Source: a virus (Duplodnaviria; Heunggongvirae; Uroviricota; Caudoviricetes). From it: 64,000 nt of DNA. The notes under the pieces are model-generated. The model made no database searches, was not told where the DNA came from, and saw only the letters and a list, made by a program, of their open reading frames with translations. The translations under genes were made by a program, and so were the position numbers. Location: positions 1,823-65,822 of the IMG/VR virus record IMGVR_UViG_2687453454_000003; one strand, given 5' to 3'. This document shows positions 723 to 28,100 of the stretch, piece by piece (the first letter of the stretch is position 1; every line of letters starts with the position of its first letter).

Positions 723-1700
723 TTATTGAGCTTCTTTTTGTGATGCCTGTGCGACTCTGGTGAGCGATTGTGTGACCGTACTGATCGCTCTGTCATATGC
801 TGTGCTACCTTTTGGCGTATTTGCCAGACGTAACAAGGCATTTCGTATAACAGGGCTTTCGTATGCCTTCGCTGCTCCGCCTACGGCACCAGCAGCAGGA
901 ACAACAAACGCAGCCGTTTTTAGCATCCCCGCTAATACTGCTGCGTTTATGATGCCACCACCAACTAACAATCCATAAAGCTGCTGACCATTTAAGTTTT
1001 GAACGTTCGCTTTTGCCGCGTGTCTTGTATCGTTGAGGTATTTAATAACGCCGTCCAGTTCCTTTCCATGTACGCCTTTAAAGAAAGTTGCTGATTGCTT
1101 CCTGTTCCGGTGTAACGCATTAATAAACTTCTCAACACTGATATTTCCAGACGGATCAGTCGCCTTATCTACAGCATTCTGAACTATGGCTGCTCGTGCG
1201 TTTTGCCTACCATTGTCATCCAGAAGCCTGTAAAGCTGAGAACGTTCTGATGGGCTTTGGCTAAAAACGAGTTTTGTTACATCCTCAGGCGTGGCCTTGC
1301 CGCTGGCTATTGCCTTTTGAACGCGCGTTCTTCCCATCATGTCATTGAATTTAGACCATGAGCGATCAACCCTTGCCATATTAATGGCTTCGTCTGCTCC
1401 AAGATTTTTGGCTACGGCTTTTTTCATATCCGCCGTATATGCCTTGTAGATAATATCGCTGGCTTTCTGGAGCGTATCTTTATCAACAGTGTCAGATGAC
1501 GCCATAAATCGCTTTCGAAGATCGGTTCTGTTTTCCCTCGCCAGACGCAGGTCATTTGGTCCGCTGGTGATATCGTCTTTAAATTGCTGCAAGACTTTTA
1601 CCGCGGCTCTATCCTGAGATTTGCCCGGGCGGCTTAACACGGCAATCTGATTGTCGATAGCTTTTACCGTGTTTGAGAGATCGACAGGGGTATCCCCCAT
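723..1700 (-). CDS. hypothetical protein (325 aa) with Gly/Ala-rich hydrophobic segment near C-terminus
   Basis: ORF track; last gene of a co-directional operon; segment LYGLLVGGGIINAAVLAGMLKTAAFVVPAAGAVGGAAKAY resembles a glycine-zipper membrane segment. Confidence 0.45.
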   Translation of the reverse strand: MGDTPVDLSNTVKAIDNQIAVLSRPGKSQDRAAVKVLQQFKDDITSGPNDLRLARENRTDLRKRFMASSDTVDKDTLQKASDIIYKAYTADMKKAVAKNLGADEAINMARVDRSWSKFNDMMGRTRVQKAIASGKATPEDVTKLVFSQSPSERSQLYRLLDDNGRQNARAAIVQNAVDKATDPSGNISVEKFINALHRNRKQSATFFKGVHGKELDGVIKYLNDTRHAAKANVQNLNGQQLYGLLVGGGIINAAVLAGMLKTAAFVVPAAGAVGGAAKAYESPVIRNALLRLANTPKGSTAYDRAISTVTQSLTRVAQASQKEAQ

Positions 1701-1849
1701 AGCGTCAATTATGCGGTTATATCGCTTTCCTGCTGCCTCAATGAATTTTTGTTGCCCTTTAGTCGCAGATTCATAAAGCTGTTTATCAGAAATGCCACCC
1801 AGACCATCGCTAAATGTTCTGACTAAATTTTCTCGTGCTTGTTGTTGAT

Positions 1850-2827
1850 TCAGCCGATTCTTACCGGTTCCAAAAAAAGAACTCTTTCGCCTAATGTCTG
1901 AGCCTGACTCTGCATAAAGGTTTTATCTTTCAGCATGTCACTGGTCATTAACGGCAGATTTCTTTCCGATGCAAAGTCGACAGCAGCCTTTGCTTCAGGC
2001 GACATATCACCACGAACAGCCCTCGAAACCGCACTCGCTGTATTTTCCAGCCCCTTACCAATACCACCAATGCCAGCAGAAATTACCGTTTGTAACGGAT
2101 CAATATCTTCTCCACCAGCAAGGCTGGTGGCTCCCTGTAGTGCTAAATCTGTAGCTGCTGATTTTCCTATGGCACCAAGCACCGTTCCAGCCCTGCCCAC
2201 TGGTGTAAACGCCAACGCATTAGCAAGAAACGAAGTCAGGTCTTGCGGTGATAAACCCGGCTTGTTCAGGGCATAATCACCTGATGGCAGAGAAACGATA
2301 GTATTCCCCTTCTCATCCTGCCTTAATGTCGCCCCCATTCCCTGAAGAATCTTTTCCTGAGACGCGTCAGAGCCGAAAAGTTGAGACCATCCAGCCTTTA
2401 GGGCATCCATGCTTAGTGAGTTCAATTCTGGGGCAGAGGTGACATTTTGCAGTCTCTCCATCTCTGGAGTCATTCGGCTTTCGCCTGTTATAGCATCGCG
2501 CATCGCAGCCCCAAGACTGGCTCCCTGTTCTGCTGAACGCTCAAGCCCCTCTCTTTGCTGAGTAGCTAACTTTGCATACCCTGACGCAAGAGAATTATCA
2601 GATGATGTATGTTGAATATTTTGAGTTGCTGATTGGGATCGGTCTATTTCATTCGTTGATGGTAGTGGATAGGCAGCATAAAAAGCCTGCTTAGCCTGCT
2701 CTACACTTTCTCCGGCTTGCGGGGCAACGACTTCATTGAAGTATTGCTCCTGAGCCTGCGCTTTTTGTTCTGGTGCTAACGCCTGATACTGTGGAGAGGC
2801 GATAACATCTTTCCATGCTTTAGCCAT
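1850..2827 (-). CDS. hypothetical protein (325 aa), Gly-rich internal segment
   Basis: ORF track; start codon overlaps stop of upstream 473-aa gene at 2827 (translational coupling); GxxxG-rich segment AGIGGIGKGLENTASAV. Confidence 0.45.
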   Translation of the reverse strand: MAKAWKDVIASPQYQALAPEQKAQAQEQYFNEVVAPQAGESVEQAKQAFYAAYPLPSTNEIDRSQSATQNIQHTSSDNSLASGYAKLATQQREGLERSAEQGASLGAAMRDAITGESRMTPEMERLQNVTSAPELNSLSMDALKAGWSQLFGSDASQEKILQGMGATLRQDEKGNTIVSLPSGDYALNKPGLSPQDLTSFLANALAFTPVGRAGTVLGAIGKSAATDLALQGATSLAGGEDIDPLQTVISAGIGGIGKGLENTASAVSRAVRGDMSPEAKAAVDFASERNLPLMTSDMLKDKTFMQSQAQTLGERVLFLEPVRIG

Positions 2828-4248
2828 TAATCACCCCATAGTGAAGAAAAGTTACTGCTGGCTGCTGGCTGTGATACCTGCTCAGATTGCGGCAATGTCT
2901 GCGACGAAGAAGAAGTTCCTCTGTCAACTGCTGAAATAACCCGCAAAGCATCATAAGCTCGACCAGAAGCAGCTTTCAGCGAATTGAACTGGTTTTCCAT
3001 CTTCCGGCGCTTGGTATCAATGGTTTTTGTGGAGTCGCCAGGCTGAGGGAAATACATTTGATAATATTTTGACATTTCAGCAGGTGCGATAGCTGCCCCT
3101 GTTTCCTGACGGAGTATTGCCATTATTGCGTCATTAGCATTAACAACGTATTGCTGCTCTGTTGGGCTGAGCGTTAAGTTAGCCAGCGTCCCATTACCCA
3201 AAGCATTATTAATGATCGCCACTCGCTGTGGGCTAAGCTGGTCTTTCAGTGTATCTATTGAATCAAGAGCATCCCTAACCCTGTATGCAAATCCAGCAGC
3301 TTTTTTAGCCCCTTCTGGCGACTTTTCCATGATCTTTTGGGCTGTTGGCAAAGCTATTGGACGAAACCCATCTCCAGATATTGGCTGGTTTAGTTTTCCC
3401 TGCTCTTCACTTCCGTCTGTGTAGTATTTTGTGACAGTGCCATCATCGTTTTCTCTAACACTCATTAATTTTTTGGCGTTTGTATTAATTCCAGCCGCTG
3501 CCGCAAATGCCGCCGCCCCCTCTGGATCCGCCTTTAACATTTGAGCGTACTGATTGTAATTCTGCATTGCTGCTGTTGGTGCATATGCTGACGTTAACGC
3601 ATTTGCTCGGCTAATATCCTGCCCTCTCGCCTGAAGTGCTTCGCCAGCCTGATTGCTGCGGATTGTCTCTGCCAACTTGCCACGCTCAATATCCCGACCT
3701 TCCATTTGATCTTTGATATCGAAATACTTCTCATGACCGAGAGAAAACAGTGCCATACTACCAGCAAGCCGCTGGAATCCCTGTGGATCATTAACATGCA
3801 TTTCGGCAACAGACTCAGGAGAAATTCCCAAGCGACGCATTTCATCTTCGTTATCTGCTATGAATTTTCCAAATGCCCCAGTTCCGAGCGAAGATGCGAT
3901 TTGAGCACTAGTCGCAAGATGACCAATAGAATTTCTCTGGTCGTCATCAATAAAGCCCATCCCTTTCTGAACGCTTTCAAATTCTTCTGGATACTCAGAA
4001 ATAAGACTGCGCATTTTGTTTCTGTCTCCAGACTCAAAAGCCCCGGCATATGCTTTCTGAAACTCTGCTTTACGCTGTTGTTGACGTGCCTGCTGATTAA
4101 TCTCAGCAACGCCTCTTAGCCCCTGTAGCGCCATTAAACCTACGTTTGGGTGCTGCTGATACTGCACAGGCTGAGGAACGGAAGAACGAGGAGCATTATC
4201 ATTTTGCGGTGCCATGCTAGGCAGCCCGCCAAGTTGCCATGTCGCCAT
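2827..4248 (-). CDS. hypothetical protein (473 aa)
   Basis: ORF track; ATGA-type overlap with both neighbours (4248 and 2827); no catalytic motif recognised. Confidence 0.5.
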   Translation of the reverse strand: MATWQLGGLPSMAPQNDNAPRSSVPQPVQYQQHPNVGLMALQGLRGVAEINQQARQQQRKAEFQKAYAGAFESGDRNKMRSLISEYPEEFESVQKGMGFIDDDQRNSIGHLATSAQIASSLGTGAFGKFIADNEDEMRRLGISPESVAEMHVNDPQGFQRLAGSMALFSLGHEKYFDIKDQMEGRDIERGKLAETIRSNQAGEALQARGQDISRANALTSAYAPTAAMQNYNQYAQMLKADPEGAAAFAAAAGINTNAKKLMSVRENDDGTVTKYYTDGSEEQGKLNQPISGDGFRPIALPTAQKIMEKSPEGAKKAAGFAYRVRDALDSIDTLKDQLSPQRVAIINNALGNGTLANLTLSPTEQQYVVNANDAIMAILRQETGAAIAPAEMSKYYQMYFPQPGDSTKTIDTKRRKMENQFNSLKAASGRAYDALRVISAVDRGTSSSSQTLPQSEQVSQPAASSNFSSLWGD

Positions 4249-4925
4249 TAGAATCCAAGCCCCCCAACAAGACCAATAAGCCCACCACCAATAGCCCCGG
4301 CGACATTACCTATACCCGGAACAACGGAACCAAGTTGCGCACCCGCTAAAGCGCCTGATGCCGCCCCACCAATACCACGCGCAAGACTGGATGGCTGCTG
4401 CGCCTGACCTGCACGAATAGCGCCAAGCCCCTGCAAGAGTTGCCCGGTATTATTGGCGTAGTTTTGCCCTGCTGTTGCCTGCCCTGATGCCGCATTCATC
4501 CCGACATTTAGCAGGTTTCCATAATTTTGCATTTGCCCACTGAGCCAATTGTTATAAAGCATGGGCGCAATGGAAGATAACTGGTTACTGGTAGCTGTTG
4601 AGCCAAGCCCCCCGGTAGCTTCTGCTGAGACAAGGTTCTGATAACGGGCCTGATCTGCCTGTGTTTTATATAAACCAGAACCAAAGAAATCATTCGCGGC
4701 TTTATTCTGCCCTTCCAGAGTCATCAGTCCTTGCAGTTGTTGTAAAGCAGGCAATCCGACTTCTGCATACGGCTTGAGATTATTCATCACCGTATTCCAC
4801 TGCTCGCGCTGCAAATCAATTGCCTGCTGCTGGGCCTTCGCCTGAGCTTTAGAGGCACCACCATCACCGCCTTTTTCGTATACGGCACGATTGAGATGTT
4901 TATGAGCTATATGGGTAATTAACAT
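4248..4925 (-). CDS. hypothetical protein (225 aa) with glycine-zipper C-terminal tail
   Basis: ORF track; C-terminus GIGGAASGALAGAQLGSVVPGIGNVAGAIGGGLIGLVGGLGF; overlaps upstream gene by 7 nt. Confidence 0.5.
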   Translation of the reverse strand: MLITHIAHKHLNRAVYEKGGDGGASKAQAKAQQQAIDLQREQWNTVMNNLKPYAEVGLPALQQLQGLMTLEGQNKAANDFFGSGLYKTQADQARYQNLVSAEATGGLGSTATSNQLSSIAPMLYNNWLSGQMQNYGNLLNVGMNAASGQATAGQNYANNTGQLLQGLGAIRAGQAQQPSSLARGIGGAASGALAGAQLGSVVPGIGNVAGAIGGGLIGLVGGLGF

Positions 4926-5380
4926 TCGCTGAATTCCTTATATTGTTGCCGAGTTAACTGATAAAGCGTTACGCCGACGGGTTTACCACATCTGATATAA
5001 GCATCATCAAGGTGACCAACACGGGTAGCGCCAAGCAAACGGATAATTGCCCGTCCATATTTCGTGGTGTCAGGAACCATAGTGATGCTGTTAAGGAATG
5101 GTGAGTTTTCGAGAAGCCATTTGCAGAATAATCGATGCCCTTGCAGTGCATATTCACCACGGAATCCGGGGTCGTACACCGCATGGCATTCAACAACGCT
5201 ATGCCAGAAGTTACGCACTTCATGAACGCCAGCCAGCACTAATCCTTCGTAGATGCCGAGATATACCGCATCAGGCTTGATGTAGTACGTGTGCCCCGGC
5301 TCAACAATATTTTCGGTATTGCCTGGCTCGTTAAGAAAGGCCTGTAATCGCACAGGGTTATCAATAAATTTTAGTTCCAT
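4919..5380 (-). CDS. hypothetical protein (153 aa)
   Basis: ORF track; first large gene of the 5380-to-723 operon; no family recognised. Confidence 0.45.
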   Translation of the reverse strand: MELKFIDNPVRLQAFLNEPGNTENIVEPGHTYYIKPDAVYLGIYEGLVLAGVHEVRNFWHSVVECHAVYDPGFRGEYALQGHRLFCKWLLENSPFLNSITMVPDTTKYGRAIIRLLGATRVGHLDDAYIRCGKPVGVTLYQLTRQQYKEFSEC

Positions 5381-5396
5381 GCGATGCCATCCATTT

Positions 5397-5558
5397 TCAC
5401 ATACAGCCTGCCAGCGCCTTATCTATTAACCCTCGTGCAATTTCATGCAGAGTTGGCGCTACTCCAATTCCTGATTTTTTACGCTGCTCTTCCTGAATTT
5501 TCTTTATCGCTTCCATTTGCTTCTCACTTATCAATACTGGCTTTACTGAAATAGCCAT
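5397..5558 (-). CDS. small ORF (53 aa) below the ORF-track cutoff, possible small DNA-binding/regulatory protein
   Basis: Hand translation MAISVKPVLISEKQMEAIKKIQEEQRKKSGIGVAPTLHEIARGLIDKALAGCM; ATG at 5558 preceded by SD-like AAGGGGGCG (RC of 5559-5570); ends 17 bp before the next gene. Confidence 0.35.
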   Translation of the reverse strand: MAISVKPVLISEKQMEAIKKIQEEQRKKSGIGVAPTLHEIARGLIDKALAGCM

Positions 5559-6006
5559 AACGCCCCCTTATAACTGTATAAAACAACAGTTATTATAGTT
5601 TCACAAATCGCAATATTCATCATCGTAATTGCAGAATATGAAACAAATAGCACAAAAAAATGCCACCGCTCAGTAGCTGGTGGCGTCGTTCTGTGTGTCA
5701 GGTTTTGACAGGTTTTTTATGGACTCTAAAAACTATATTTATGGTGTCGCATTACTCTTCACGGCAGGCGCTTTTCAGTTCTGCCCTTGCTTCTGGCTCC
5801 ATTGGTAATTTGATTCGCGATCAGCTATGCGGATGGTTTGCTGAACAGGCATAACAACTTCTCAGAGGCTGTTTTTTGAACTACGAAAATTTCGTAGTGC
5901 TCACTTTCAAAAACGTCACGCCCTTGTACACAGGATTTTACGAAAGTCTCGTAAAACACTCTCTGATGCCAGCCAGGTGTTGTGCGCATCAATTCAGTCA
6001 CATTGT

Positions 6007-6117
6007 GTTGGTTCAAAATACCGTGTTGTTGGTTCAGTGTTGGTTCAATAAAAAGAATAAAATCCTTATAAAACAATACCCTTTACAAATTGAACCAACT
6101 GAACCAACTGAACCAAC
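6007..6117. repeat. iteron cluster: three GTTGGTTCA copies (6007-6015, 6028-6036, 6039-6047) and three tandem inverted copies TGAACCAAC (6091-6099, 6100-6108, 6109-6117); putative satellite ori / primase-binding region
   Basis: Direct reading of sequence; lies immediately downstream of the primase-helicase gene, as for the P4 ori relative to alpha. Confidence 0.6.
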
Positions 6118-6142
6118 ACCTTTTCTACGCACATGAAGAAGC

Positions 6143-8902
6143 TCATTCTTCAGATGAGTTATAATCTCCTGGCTGGTAATTGAGTACATAAACGTTTATT
6201 TGTCGTCCCTGAATACGTGGTGATTTTCTTTGGTATCCACGACCGCTGTTTGGTGGGGTTAGCATCCCGGCTTTTTTCAACACTTCAGCAAACTGTTTTG
6301 CGTTGAAACCACATGCGATCTCCTTTTCAAATGTGGCCGGGAATGTGTAGAAAATCATTGGGCTTTCGTCATGTTCTCCACGCTGACGGTATCCGGCTAA
6401 ATCTTTGATGGGCAAATCTGCCGGGCTGTATGGAAATGGTGCAAAACGGCTAAGCCCATAGGCATTAAGAAATGCCTCCGTTTGTTCAATAATCTGCTGA
6501 TGTTCTTTGTTACCTGTGCCGAACTCGCGCAACCATGCGTTATAGCTGTGCTGTATCGCATCACGGCATGTCTGAGCATCCCAGCCTGTTACAACCTCGC
6601 CTAACAGCAATGCGGCCTCCAGAATGGCAAATCGCGCGGCTACACGGTGAACCTGCTCACCATAATCGGATGGGATCAGGTTTCTCCATCTGCTTTCGCA
6701 ATCACGAACGGTTTTAATAGCCTGTTGCTGGTGGTCTGCCAGCCATTTAATCCACTCACGCCCGGCTGCGCCGTGGTGATGCTGGTAAGCGTCTTTCAGT
6801 GCGTCTGCGTGCTGTTTTCCGTTCTGGTAATCGTGAAAGCGTACTGCTTTACTCAACGGAATATTCAGCAGTCGCACCAGTTGCCCGGCTTTGGTTTTTC
6901 GCCCGGAAGTAGCGATAAATGTTTCTAAATCCATTTCTCCGGTGCTGATTGCCACTGTACGCCAGCGTTTTAGATCCCGGTTTCCACCATCTTTAGCGCC
7001 TTGCAGTTTCCCTACACCGTTAAATAACGCATAGGCAGACTGTGAAACGCTGACAGGATCAGCGCCCTGACCAACTTCATCAAGCGGCATTAGTCCGTCA
7101 TTGTGGGCGGCGGCCTCATTTGCCAGCCCCAGCGCGGTTCCGTACCACGTCAGCCGCAGTAAATCAGGGTTGCCGTATAAGCTGCTCGCCACGTTTGCCG
7201 TGGTGGTCTTACCTGCGCTCGACTGCTCATAGAAATGAATGCCGAACCCGTCAGCGCCCACCAGCCCAATCAATGGCGCTGCCAGTGCTGCGCCGATCCC
7301 GGTCATCATTGAATAGTTACCAAAGGCCAGACGCGCCACGTTATCACGCCAGCTTTTCGCGCTCCCTGAGACGGTATATCCGGCTGCGGCTGAGCTTCTC
7401 CCGCTGAACAGCACAGGATTTTCAGGTGTTCCGATGATTTCCCCATCAGGCATGATGTACGCTCCGCATTGCCATCCAGTGGCATGAGCAACACGCCACA
7501 ATTCACGAGAGCCACTGCGTTGTAGCCAGTCTGCCAGTATTGCTCTGAGGCTGCTTTTGGTCGTGACATTTACCCCACCAGCTTTAAGTGTGCGCCATCC
7601 TTCACGTTCACCAATATCAGCCAGTGGAATGGCAGCGGTTGTCGGCGTTTCAGAACCAAACGACAGCCAGCGAAGAATGAGATACTGGTCTTTATCGTCT
7701 CTGCCAGTACCGATAACGCTTAACGGAGAACATAACCAGCTTTCGTTATTGATGATTTCTCCACTCTGGCTGTCAGCTCTCGGAGATACCCAATAAATAC
7801 CATCCTCGCGGCTTTCTATTCTTGGTTTCAGTGGGTCGGTATCCATAACCTTAAAATCGCTTCCCTCAATGGTCTGTGGCTCCTGTTTCACGCCATTACC
7901 CTGTGGTTGGTACATTGACTTATTGAACGCTTCTGTGGCGCATTTAATGCCGTGTTTTTGGTGGTAATCATTCCAGTCTGCTTTGTGATCTGTCGGGGGT
8001 AATGCCACCCATCCAGAAACAGATAAAGCTGCTTTTTCTGCTGCTATTCTCCCCGTGTTTTGTCTTCCTTCGCTGTGGTCGTTATCCGCAGCAATGATGA
8101 TTTGTGCTGAAGGAAATTTATCCCGCAGTACCTGGGCGACATATAACAGGTTCCCGGCATCAATCGCCGCCACTGTCAGCGCCTCTGGACGAATTAAATG
8201 GGCAGATAATGCCGTTGCCAGCCCTTCTGCGATTAAGATGCTCTGTGTTGTTTCTGGCGCGTTTATGGCGTGATATGCCCCCCGCTTTGCTGAACCTGTC
8301 AGGAGTCTTTTTTCACCATGTGATGTAATAGTCTGTGCTGCTGTGACTGCGCCGGATTTATCCACCAGCGCCAGCAACAGAGATCCATCGGGCAACACGG
8401 GGAATGTAAAATCACCTACCCCTTTCGCAACCAGATAATCAGATTTGCCGTTTACAGCCTTTCTGCGCATGTCATCAAACTGACGGGAAAACGTATCCCG
8501 TCTTTGTTGTTCGTCCTTCTCTGCCCTTTTCAGGCGCTCCTGTTCGCGTCGCTGGCGCTCGGTTTCCAGTTGTTCCCGTTTCTGGCTGGTGGCTTCTGGT
8601 GTTTCCGTTGTCCGGTAATCAATACCCAGAACATCAGCGGCAAGAAGCGCCGCCTCTGTTGTGTCGCAGTTATTTACGCGTTTAATTAAATCCAGCCCAT
8701 CACCAGCGCCGCACTGATTACAGATGAAGCTACCGCGCCCGTTGTCATCGAACCGGAATCGATCTTTGCCCCCACATGCAGGGCAGGGAGCATGACGGCG
8801 CGGAGAGTCAGGGACATTTATGTTCAGGCAGCCCAGCACATGAGGCCAGTTGTTTTCAGACGCACTGATAACCTGACGGATAAGATCAATGTTTCGCATC
8901 AC
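6143..8902 (-). CDS. P4 alpha-like primase-helicase (zinc-binding primase + D5/P-loop helicase domain)
   Basis: N-terminal Cys cluster PCPACGG...CNQCG (zinc-binding primase type), Toprim-like acidic region (IIIAADNDHSEG), C-terminal P-loop YEQSSAGKTT; 919 aa. Confidence 0.8.
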   Translation of the reverse strand: MMRNIDLIRQVISASENNWPHVLGCLNINVPDSPRRHAPCPACGGKDRFRFDDNGRGSFICNQCGAGDGLDLIKRVNNCDTTEAALLAADVLGIDYRTTETPEATSQKREQLETERQRREQERLKRAEKDEQQRRDTFSRQFDDMRRKAVNGKSDYLVAKGVGDFTFPVLPDGSLLLALVDKSGAVTAAQTITSHGEKRLLTGSAKRGAYHAINAPETTQSILIAEGLATALSAHLIRPEALTVAAIDAGNLLYVAQVLRDKFPSAQIIIAADNDHSEGRQNTGRIAAEKAALSVSGWVALPPTDHKADWNDYHQKHGIKCATEAFNKSMYQPQGNGVKQEPQTIEGSDFKVMDTDPLKPRIESREDGIYWVSPRADSQSGEIINNESWLCSPLSVIGTGRDDKDQYLILRWLSFGSETPTTAAIPLADIGEREGWRTLKAGGVNVTTKSSLRAILADWLQRSGSRELWRVAHATGWQCGAYIMPDGEIIGTPENPVLFSGRSSAAAGYTVSGSAKSWRDNVARLAFGNYSMMTGIGAALAAPLIGLVGADGFGIHFYEQSSAGKTTTANVASSLYGNPDLLRLTWYGTALGLANEAAAHNDGLMPLDEVGQGADPVSVSQSAYALFNGVGKLQGAKDGGNRDLKRWRTVAISTGEMDLETFIATSGRKTKAGQLVRLLNIPLSKAVRFHDYQNGKQHADALKDAYQHHHGAAGREWIKWLADHQQQAIKTVRDCESRWRNLIPSDYGEQVHRVAARFAILEAALLLGEVVTGWDAQTCRDAIQHSYNAWLREFGTGNKEHQQIIEQTEAFLNAYGLSRFAPFPYSPADLPIKDLAGYRQRGEHDESPMIFYTFPATFEKEIACGFNAKQFAEVLKKAGMLTPPNSGRGYQRKSPRIQGRQINVYVLNYQPGDYNSSEE

Positions 8903-9257
8903 CGTACCCCATGTGGTCTATAGCGTTTGCGATATGGCTAACCAGCATCTGCCACTTGGTTATTCCGTAATCAGTCAGCATGCCATCATTGTTTAGCCAC
9001 ATATCAAATTCAGCGGTTGTCGCAAGTTTCCACTTATCGCCGTGGACAGTCCTCATTGCTGGGTACATGAATGCGCAAATCAGATCACAAACATCTGACG
9101 GCTTCAGAGATGTAGTAATGGTGCGTCCCTCTGGCGTCTGAATTGCCATTTTCTCTTCACCAGTAGAATGAAGGTTATGAATCCACACAGCACCAGCAAT
9201 CTTTGCCACCTGCTCTCCGATTGCGGAGCTAAGCGCCATTTCTGCATTTTCACGCAT
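8886..9257 (-). CDS. hypothetical small protein
   Basis: ORF track; part of tightly packed co-directional array with overlapping start/stop codons; start uncertain. Confidence 0.35.
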   Translation of the reverse strand: MRENAEMALSSAIGEQVAKIAGAVWIHNLHSTGEEKMAIQTPEGRTITTSLKPSDVCDLICAFMYPAMRTVHGDKWKLATTAEFDMWLNNDGMLTDYGITKWQMLVSHIANAIDHMGYGDAKH

Positions 9258-25123: not shown

Positions 25124-28100
25124 TCAACGAATACTGATGCCGGAAGCGGCTTTTTTGGTCACAATCACCGTACAGTCGGTGATATTGCCTGCCCCCTGAT
25201 TGCCTTTCTGGAAAATCTTAAACTCCAGAGTGACGCTTCCCCTGCCACTCGGCATATCAATAACTGCACTGTAACTACCGGGAATGGCCCCTTTAGTTTC
25301 TCTGGATGCGATTAATACGCCGTTTTTGCGAACTTCAAAACCATAACCCGTGTATCTTGTACCTCCCGGGTTATTACCACTTCCCGGATCGCTATACGCT
25401 ATTCCGTTAAAGATAATGGGCGGAATAATGATTTGACGGTCAAAGTTATGATCATCGCTGATGGTGACTGTAACCGTCCCGTTTGGTGTTTCCGTATTAC
25501 CCCACGTACCAGCCTGTTTCGGGAATGATTTGGATACAGCTTTAACGAAGTCACCTCTGACCTGAGTCGCCTCCAGCATGCCCTTAATCGTACAGTTTTC
25601 ATTTACCGTGACATTGTTGAGCGTCCCGGCGTTCGCATTCACACTGCCACTGATATCCGCATTTTTAGCGGTCAGCTTTCCGTCCGGTGTCAGGGAAAAT
25701 GCCGGCGGATTTCCACCGCTGGTAATGGTGGGAGCCGTCAGGCGTTTCAGGAACACGTCATTCATGAATATCTGATCACCCTGACCAACAAACATCGGTT
25801 TTGTGTTGCCATTTGCAGGATTAATCATCGCAATCCTGTCCGCCGCCAGCAGCACCTGACTCTGCATGCCGTCAGGGGTGTTCTCAATACCGGCACCGAT
25901 ACCCGCAATATAAAGGCGTCCGTCCTGCATCTGCTGCAGCTTCACTGCCCACATGCTGTTCAGGTTATTATTTGTATCAACCTGAACCTTCTGTATCTGC
26001 TGGATCGCTGCACTCTGGTCTTCCAGTTTCTTATTGACGGTCTGTGTTATTTCATTGCTGACATCCGTTATGGACGTCCTGATTTCAGTCAGGTCAGGCG
26101 CAAGCTGACCGTTATCAATCTGCGTCCACAGCTCCTGAGCCAGATGGGTTTTCCCTATCTCGCCTTTGAAAAAATCCAGATAGCCTGATGCATCATCACT
26201 CGGCTGACCGACAGCCTCCACGAATGCCGATTTGCCAACGGTGTTCACACTGCGAACGTAAAAATAATAATCATGGCCCGGTTTGATATTGATACTGGCG
26301 GCTATCCAGTACAGTGCCGTACCAAGATAACGCGCGCTGGTTTCAACCTGCCTGATATCCGCAATCCGTTTTTCCGAGAACCAGAACTCAAACTGTACCG
26401 TCGGGTCATAAACCGCAAGATGCGGCGTGGCGGTTATCTGAAAATAGCCCGGCGTCAGCTCAATCCGCGACGGCGCTGCCGGTGCGGCAATCCGGAACGA
26501 TACCGACGCCGGATCGCCCTGCTGCCCCCACGCATTTACTGCCCGGACTGTCAGCCTGTAGTTCCCCAGAGCCAGTTGTGTGAAGCGGTAAGTGGTTTCC
26601 GTCGTCCGGGCCGTGCTGACCAGCCGCTCACTGCCGTCATCCGCTGCCACGGTCAGGCGAAGCAGGAAGCTCACGCCCTTCACCACCTTCGGCGTGTCCC
26701 AGCGCGCCAGCACCTGATATTCCCCGCTGTCTGCGGTGACTTCGGCGGTCAGGTGCTGCACCGCTGGCGGCGTGACACCATTCACCGTGCCGCTCTGGTC
26801 GCCGTCAAAGTGCGCCCCGTTATCCACGATGGCTTCTTTTTCCGGTACATGCTGCACGGCAGTGATGGCATACGTGCCGTCATCGTTCTCACGGATACTC
26901 ACACAGCGGAACAGGCGCTGGCGCAGCGTCGGCAGCTTCAGCCCCCACACACTGTATTCTGCAACGCCGTCAGGAACCCGGTTCACTTTCACCTTAAGTC
27001 CGTCGGTGACGGACTGAACCTCCACGCTGACCGGATTACCACTTCCGTCAACCAGGCTTATCAGCGTGGTACCGGAGGATGGCAGCGTGATTTCACGGTC
27101 GAGCGTCAGCGTCCGGGTCTGGCTGTTCACCGCCAGCACGCGACCACCGGTGCTGATACCGGCATAGTCATCATCGCAGATTTCAATGACATCGCCCGGT
27201 ACATGGCGAAGCCCTTCAGCACCCACGCTGAAATCCACGGTCTGCGTCTCCAGCAGTTCCGTTTTAATCAGCCACAGCCCGGCGCGGTGTGCCTGCCCCC
27301 GGCTGGTACAGCCAAAGGCATCCATCTTCGTGACATTACGACCGTAACGGGCAATGGCCTGCGTATCTTCAACAAGCTCTGTCGCCGTCTCCCAGCCGTT
27401 GTCCGGGTCAATCCAGTTCACCTCAACGGCATTATGGCGGTCCTTCAGGGCGCTGAAGCTGTAGCGGAACGGCGCGCCATCATCCGGCATCACCACATTA
27501 CTGCGGTTATAGGTCCACACCTTATCCGACGGTCGGTCCTGCACGAACGTCAGCGTCTGCCCGTTCCATACCGGCATACAGCGCATCGCCGAGCAGAAAT
27601 CACTGAGCACATCCCACGCCTTGCGCTGTGTGGTCAGGTACGCATTACAGGTGATGCGCGGCTCCGTGCCGCCAAAGCCGTCCGGCACTGACTGGTCGCA
27701 GTACTGGCCGATGACATACAGCGCCCATTTGTCCACATCCGCCGCACCAAGACGTTTCCCCATGCCGTAGCGTGGATGGGTCAGCATATCCCACAGACAC
27801 CAGGCCATGTTATTGCTGTATGCTGGCTTAAACGTTCCGTCCCAGATACCGCTGTATTGCCGCGTCTGCGGGTTATAGTTCGACGGCACCTGCAGAATAC
27901 GCCCGCGCAGATGATAATTACGGCTCACCTGCTGGCTGCCGAACTGCTCCGAATCCACCTGTACGCCGACCAGTGCCGTGTTCGGGTAGCACTGTTTCAC
28001 ATCGATGATTTCGGTGTATGACGACCAGAGCGTTTTGTTCTGCAGCTGGTCTGTGGTGCTGTCCGGCGTCATCCTGCGCATCCGGATATTGAACGGGCGC

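Follow-up and report, generated by a model that had tools for sequence, protein, structure and literature searches.

A putative replication origin of opposed 9-bp iterons next to a primase-helicase gene in a PICI-type satellite island of Escherichia coli

The repeat cluster described here belongs to a satellite-type island in a 64-kb stretch of DNA, which was analysed at its full length and is called the window below. The window is E. coli chromosomal DNA, and the region is found in 591 of 5426 complete E. coli genomes (~11%). According to the annotation of an identical stretch together with Pfam, the minus strand carries genes for a tyrosine integrase, DUF6387, AlpA (PF05930, E 9e-20), an AntA/Bro-type protein, DUF4222 and Ash, then several small ORFs and a primase-helicase gene, which is followed by the repeats. 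Past the repeats come a 53-aa ORF, genes for P22-type DUF2824, gp7, gp20 and injection proteins and, at a greater distance, a gene of the PerC family. The left end of the island lies outside the window. An integrase combined with AlpA is a hallmark of Gram-negative PICIs, and the description of this region in the sequence-only reading as the replication module of a satellite-like element is borne out by the presence of both genes. In the published plan of Gram-negative PICIs there are zones for integration (int, AlpA), for Bro genes and for replication, and a late zone holding late genes that were captured from prophages (PMC10111431). In its genes, the island matches this plan: it has the integrase and AlpA, unidirectional genes, a primase gene followed by the putative ori, and a late or accessory zone.

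Several features between the repeats and the far end of this late zone deserve description. The P22-type DNA-ejection genes directly past the putative origin (723-5380, minus strand) comprise a DUF2824/gp14-like gene, gp7, gp20 and an injection-protein gene. Among the related loci introduced below, such genes occur only at the Escherichia locus (L002) and at one Leclercia locus (L031). They fit the captured late zone of Gram-negative PICIs, though they are an unusual cargo. The distal injection-protein gene appears to be split in the window into two ORFs of 325 aa, and the IS66 insertion that interrupts the ejection-gene block in strain EC26 is absent from it. The 53-aa ORF (5397-5558, minus strand) has no Pfam match. 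It is kept past the origin in about 30 related loci, at +500 to +5600, and seems to mark the far side of an insertion point for variable cargo. The stretch between the origin and the late genes contains two 15-nt palindromes with the pattern TACGAAA-N-TTTCGTA, at 5880-5898 and 5937-5958. They are 57 nt apart and give 4 strand-hits where 0.17 are expected. In seven related loci (L004, L005, L010, L011, L024, L043 and L055) the same palindrome is found upstream of the primase gene, and it looks like an operator for a dimeric regulator. A consensus scan further picked up a weak terminator-like hairpin followed by T7 at 5662-5677 on the minus strand, ~465 nt past the primase stop. It may be the place where the replication-zone transcript stops, beyond the origin; a genuine terminator here would mean that transcription of the primase gene continues across the origin.

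The primase-helicase gene, pri-rep, occupies 6143-8899 on the minus strand and encodes 918 aa from an ATG at 8899; the ORF list gives 919 aa from a GTG at 8902. The RefSeq name of the product is "TOPRIM and DUF927 domain-containing protein". Pfam places a Zn-ribbon (Zn_Ribbon_Prim) at aa 35-70, a Toprim primase domain (Toprim_3) at aa 222-319 and a DUF927 helicase at aa 366-644, after which come a helical region and a C-terminal domain that is modelled as winged-helix-like. Its residues 8-362 align with the primase domain of P4 alpha at 33% identity over 359 aa (E 2e-41). A match to SaPIbov1 Rep covers residues 403-814 (8tch, E 4e-12), and the helicase is also related to SCCmec Cch (5dgk). On these sequence matches, the putative initiator is a chimera in which a P4-type primase is fused to a SaPIbov1-Rep-type helicase.

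The C-terminal domain is of special interest for recognition of the repeats. The predicted origin-binding domain (aa 819-912) is encoded by 6167-6448 on the minus strand. A first model of aa 780-919 was built on a shallow alignment, with matches 74-91% identical over the fragment, and reached a pLDDT of 40. It was replaced by a model of a 280-aa fragment with a more diverse alignment from a profile search, which is good but not excellent (pLDDT 77, pTM 0.51). In structure, the modelled C-terminus comes nearest to the C-terminal parts of SCCmec Cch (5dgk) and SaPIbov1 Rep (8tch), and it also resembles the DNA-bound wHTH protein TcpK. The origin-binding domain of P4 alpha is absent from its structural matches. 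In the model, aa 889-899 (G-Y-Q-R-K-S-P-R-I-Q-G; codons at 6206-6238, minus strand) form a basic beta-hairpin after the second helix of the small domain, that is, at the position of the wing. We propose from this model that the hairpin may read the repeat sequence.

The repeats begin 25 nt past the stop codon of pri-rep (6143-6145, minus strand). Three copies of the 9-nt unit GTTGGTTCA are read on the plus strand at 6007-6015, 6028-6036 and 6039-6047, and three copies of its reverse complement TGAACCAAC are seen in the plus-strand letters at 6091-6099, 6100-6108 and 6109-6117. The copies nearest to the gene make up a proximal arm (6091-6119, minus strand) of three head-to-tail GTTGGTTCA units with a 9-nt period, directed at the spacer. 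The distal arm (6007-6047, plus strand) is inverted relative to the proximal arm, and its copies at 6007, 6028 and 6039 are spaced 11 and 21 nt from the spacer outward. The two arms are thus not mirror images, one being tandem with a 9-nt period and the other spaced 11/21 nt. The repeat unit is longer in some copies, with GTGTTGGTTCA at 6005, 6037 and 6109-6119. By sequence reading and pattern search on both strands, all six exact copies of GTTGGTTCA in the 64-kb window fall inside 6007-6117. The chance expectation is 0.62 copies; in 100 dinucleotide-preserving shuffles of the window the maximum was 3, and none gave 6. When up to one mismatch is allowed, 24 matches are found against 16.6 expected, but the other 18 are dispersed at chance level and form no second cluster in the window. 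The exact coordinates agree with the earlier observation of three copies facing three beside the primase-helicase gene, and no such group occurs elsewhere in the 64 kb.

Between the arms lies a spacer of 43 nt (6048-6090), the presumed melting region, which contains 8 G+C. With 81% A+T, it is as AT-rich as it had been described from the letters, and the GC profile falls to its minimum of 0.27-0.30 there. Alignment of the spacer with those of related loci revealed a conserved core, TTGTTTTATAAGG, in its middle (6064-6076, minus strand). When 36 distinct spacers of 43 nt, taken from repeat classes A, B and C, are compared, the per-position conservation of this core is 0.72-1.0, with one position at 0.53. 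Across these 36 spacers and three classes, the 13-nt core can be written as TTG(A/T)TTTATAAGG. Since it is kept in so many distinct spacers, the spacer is more than merely AT-rich, and the core is a candidate unwinding element, priming start or host-factor site. Inspection by eye gave no convincing match to the IHF consensus in the spacer, and no DnaA box was found near the repeats or within the replication region of the island.

Relatives were collected by a scan of one genome per species, which yielded 77 loci in other Enterobacterales and beyond, with proteins 29-100% identical to that of the window. The C-terminus and the downstream DNA could be read in 65 of them. A repeat cluster directly past the primase stop is present in 58 of these 65, so the repeats are not peculiar to the window: their absence from related elements would have spoken against the origin reading, and instead they recur with conserved position and layout. 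The seven loci counted without a repeat class include two (L014 and L047) with degenerate GTTGGTTCA copies in the same layout. In nearly all of the 58 loci the proximal units recur every 9 nt, and the first of them lies +22 to +30 past the stop. Most relatives have a spacer of exactly 43 nt, with a mean A+T of 76%, and the 11/21-nt spacing of the distal arm is kept in relatives of every repeat class. The modal layout, three tandem copies, a 43-nt AT-rich spacer and three inverted copies, is seen in 31 of the 58. A departure from it is found in an Erwinia MAG (L061, 3987-4050), where the 9-nt array is expanded to seven tandem proximal GTTGGTTCA copies instead of three.

While the layout is conserved, the repeat sequence is variable. 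Nine repeat classes were distinguished: GTTGGTTCA, which is that of the window and the commonest, GTCGGTTCA, GTTGTCTCA, ACGGGTTA, GTCGGGTA, GTGGGTTA, ACTTATCCCA, GGTCGGTT and CAGGGGCAG. The last is found in a Desulfohalobiaceae MAG, the protein of which is only 30% identical to that of the window. Each locus carries one variant in all of its copies, and the surrounding scaffold can still be aligned between classes. The genes upstream of the cluster (AlpA, orf143, AntA, orf235 and orf113) are common across genera, whereas the downstream genes differ completely; therefore, the repeats belong with the primase gene and not with the downstream cargo.

Two further kinds of variation concern the module as a whole. 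A second cluster of the same repeat lies at about +165 to +340 in 29 of the 58 loci, and the window is without it. Typically, two inverted copies and a single forward one are joined in this second cluster by an inverted tandem of three (for example L003 at 8985-9100, L007, L021 and L046). It is reminiscent of the duplicated 120-bp units of P4 crr and could have a crr-like or copy-control role. Since half of the relatives carry it, the single cluster of the window could be a reduced origin. Some relatives of ~700-740 aa lack the Zn-ribbon/Toprim N-terminus and keep the helicase, the C-terminal domain and the origin layout (L048, L049, L053, L056, L060, L062, L064 and L081). One of these, found by tblastn, is encoded by Klebsiella phage P12620-1 (L081; PQ569648, 98633-100768), a deposited genome of 106.5 kb, and has GTTGGTTCA repeats 25 nt past its stop; megablast of the region against deposited phages returned no relative. 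The existence of such short relatives, including one in a phage, indicates that the helicase-plus-origin module recombines with different N-terminal domains and kinds of elements.

The repeat class tracks the C-terminal domain of the protein. In an alignment of the last 135 residues, all 37 sequences of the GTTGGTTCA class (class A; 36 related loci and the window protein) have QRKSPR[IV] in the hairpin, and all five loci with GTTGTCTCA repeats (class C) have QGRV-RE. The protein of L021, which is otherwise class-A-like, has QRKTPRI and is accompanied by GTCGGTTCA repeats. The remaining classes each have a distinct hairpin string. The differences are local, as seen when identity to the window protein is followed in sliding windows of 30 residues: proteins of the GTTGTCTCA class are 80-99% identical to it over aa 420-800 and 60-83% beyond aa 800, and in the ACGGGTTA class the identity drops to 37-52%, but not before aa 820. 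Classes A and C have disjoint residue sets in only 7 of the 649 alignment columns, and 5 of these 7 lie at aa 892-897. Between classes A and D, all 19 separating columns lie inside aa 821-904. In silico, initiator and repeat thus appear to have cognate specificity. Because the wing codons are only ~90-120 nt from the repeats, this covariation could partly reflect co-inheritance of a linked tract. However, the local changes in the protein and the conserved DNA scaffold around the repeats would favour co-evolution over replacement of the whole tract.

Taken together, these observations make it highly probable, in our judgement, that the cluster serves a Gram-negative PICI-type satellite island in E. 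coli as its origin of vegetative replication, and that the adjacent gene encodes its single-chain initiator, in which a DnaG/P4-alpha-type primase is joined to a DUF927 self-loading hexameric helicase and to a C-terminal winged-helix-like domain. The sequence-only reading had taken the cluster for an origin or primase-binding site. That view gains support from the layout conserved at 58 loci, from the covariation with the C-terminus and, as far as the model goes, from the winged-helix-like fold. Converging arms around an AT-rich spacer with a conserved core are the layout expected of a melting site.

A working scheme can be drawn for this origin. If the initiator acts in the manner of SaPI Rep, its C-terminal domains would recognise the 9-bp repeats, and the basic beta-hairpin at aa 889-899 may read the variable central bases of the repeat. 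One initiator oligomer would occupy each arm, facing the 43-nt AT-rich spacer. The spacer would then melt, the helicases would load, and the fused primase domain would prime. We infer binding, melting, loading and origin firing from the analogous systems. With this cluster, the replication module is located for an island that ~11% of complete E. coli genomes carry; the module is also found across Enterobacterales and in at least one phage genome that has been deposited. The finding further extends the PICI/SaPI origin layout to a chimeric initiator for which no described origin was found in the literature searched.

The comparative set leads to a more general proposal, to which we give an even chance. 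Toprim-DUF927 initiators and their origins may form at least nine orthogonal initiator/iteron pairs built on one scaffold, which is defined by the distance from the stop, the 9/9 and 11/21 spacing, the 43-nt spacer and the TTGNTTTATAAGG core. Specificity would be switched by a few residues in the hairpin at aa 889-899, and perhaps by a second patch at aa 840-849. The set predicts which residues read which bases and which pairs of elements are cross-compatible. If the proposal is true, the series of nine pairs is a readable recognition code for a self-loading helicase and a set of designable replicons, and orthogonal pairs explain how related satellites escape cross-replication or incompatibility in one cell.

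The most serious rival to the origin reading, though an improbable one, is that the cluster is an accessory site resembling P4 crr, or an iteron copy-control ("handcuffing") site, to which the initiator binds while initiation takes place elsewhere. In P4, the repeats just downstream of alpha are indeed crr and not the mapped ori, and type-1 repeats lie there in both orientations around an A-rich stretch; the two clusters carried by half of the relatives would suit such a role as well. However, the window has no second cluster at which initiation could be placed, even at one mismatch. The helicase part of the initiator is of the SaPI Rep type and not of the P4 type, and SaPIs have their origin immediately past rep (PMC9371898). 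Moreover, the AT-rich spacer with its conserved core between converging arms fits a melting site.

A role outside replication is quite unlikely. The repeats would then form a hairpin that terminates or attenuates the primase transcript, or an operator for the late genes. The RNA of the gene strand does fold to -50.5 kcal/mol, with z = -5.8 against shuffles, the site sits between two gene blocks, and a concerted change of both arms would also preserve a hairpin. Yet there is no T-tract, and the terminator consensus scan had no match here; its only gene-strand candidate before the next gene is the one at 5677-5662. The pairing is bulged because the spacings of the arms differ (9/9 against 11/21), and each arm consists of three direct repeats, which would be superfluous in a hairpin. 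Rfam returned only sub-threshold, spurious miRNA hairpin matches for the repeat region. Both the hairpin and the operator are further at odds with the second cluster of the same unit in relatives, with the constant distance of the repeats from the primase stop at loci whose downstream genes are entirely different, and with the way in which the repeat sequence follows the C-terminal domain of the primase. A packaging (pac/cos-like) or partition site can be set aside as very remote: a satellite does require a signal for packaging, and short repeated motifs are found at some pac and parS sites, but no terS or parB-like gene is adjacent, the site stays with the primase gene despite different cargo and covaries with its C-terminus, and the cos sites described for E. 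coli PICIs are lambda-like cosQ/cosN/cosB (PMC6092414) and not short iterons.

Among known systems, the origins of iteron plasmids (pPS10, R6K, RK2 and P1) and lambda ori share with the putative island origin the placement of initiator repeats beside an AT-rich unwinding element. In these systems, initiator and iteron specificity also co-evolve. However, these origins have direct repeats of 17-22 bp in one orientation, RepA/pi/TrfA- or O-type initiators that recruit DnaB, and usually DnaA boxes. The island instead has 9-bp units in inverted arms, no DnaA box and an initiator that is itself a helicase-primase. In SCCmec, Cch is of the DUF927 type but has no defined origin and no fused Toprim primase, and Cch2 belongs to another helicase family, with only three direct 5-nt repeats.

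The likeness to P4 is closer but partial. P4 alpha has a homologous Zn-ribbon and Toprim primase and the same order of primase, helicase and origin binding. P4 crr starts 46 nt past the alpha stop, just beyond the gene, and has 8-bp repeats in both orientations, with tandem pairs ~9 nt apart and an A-rich stretch between them. The helicase and C-terminus of alpha, in contrast, are of the D5_N/DUF5906/Pox_D5 type as opposed to DUF927 here, so that only the primase domain is shared, and the island protein is not an alpha-type initiator with Toprim, a D5-type SF3 helicase and the alpha C-terminal domain. The P4 type-1 repeat TGTTCACC has one chance match in the window, at 27124, and none near the site. 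P4 also uses two cis sites (ori and crr) 4.5 kb apart, whereas the island has one cluster in the 64-kb window. The earlier label "P4 ori-like" is accordingly apt for the primase domain, which resembles that of P4 alpha, and does not suit the DUF927-type helicase, the absence of P4 type-1 iterons or the lack of a second distant site.

The origins of SaPIs and other PICIs (SaPIbov1, SaPI1, EcCICFT073) have the closest layout and are a better comparator than P4 ori. In SaPIs the origin is found immediately 3' of rep; iterons flank an AT-rich region in opposite directions, and the C-terminal winged helix of Rep binds them (PMC9371898, PMC7581432). There are 6-12 of these short iterons, and the self-loading Rep attaches to them without ATP, probably in the form of two hexamers (PMC9371898, PMC7581432). 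A PICI/SaPI origin is defined by two sets of iterons, at least two per side, opposed around an AT-rich region (PMC9371898, PMC6092414). For EcCICFT073, pri-rep-ori maintains a plasmid (PMC6092414); initiator binding and autonomous replication are shown for EcCICFT073 and SaPIs (PMC9371898, PMC6092414).

The two systems differ from the island in details of the repeat and the protein. The repeats are 9 bp here and 5-6 bp in SaPIs, and a fused DnaG/P4-alpha-type primase takes the place of the separate AEP primase of SaPIbov1. The Pri-Rep of EcCICFT073 is of the D5_N/DUF5906/Pox_D5 type, with an origin of TGTCTACC repeats in both orientations, and has no detectable sequence similarity to the window protein. 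A full-text search for GTTGGTTCA returned unrelated papers only, and the initiator class was likewise not found, though one of the four Pri-Rep variants of PMC6092414, whose E. coli PICI iterons are listed in a figure beyond the reach of the text search, might already be of this class. Since the Pri-Rep of EcCICFT073 is of another type, the layout is known with an unrelated initiator, while this class and its repeat were not found in the literature searched.

The agreement with SaPI and PICI origins nevertheless extends from the site to the initiator and the genes around it. The site lies directly 3' of the pri/rep gene, with its first repeat 25 nt past the stop, and consists of opposed short iterons, three and three, around an AT-rich centre of 43 nt. 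As judged from homology and the model, the protein is a Rep-type self-loading helicase with a C-terminal domain of the winged-helix type, and its helicase part is homologous to 8tch and 5dgk. The context is likewise that of a PICI, with genes for an integrase and AlpA, one common direction of the genes and a late zone. Origins of this kind are known already, and the cluster is a well-supported but ordinary further example rather than a new kind of system.
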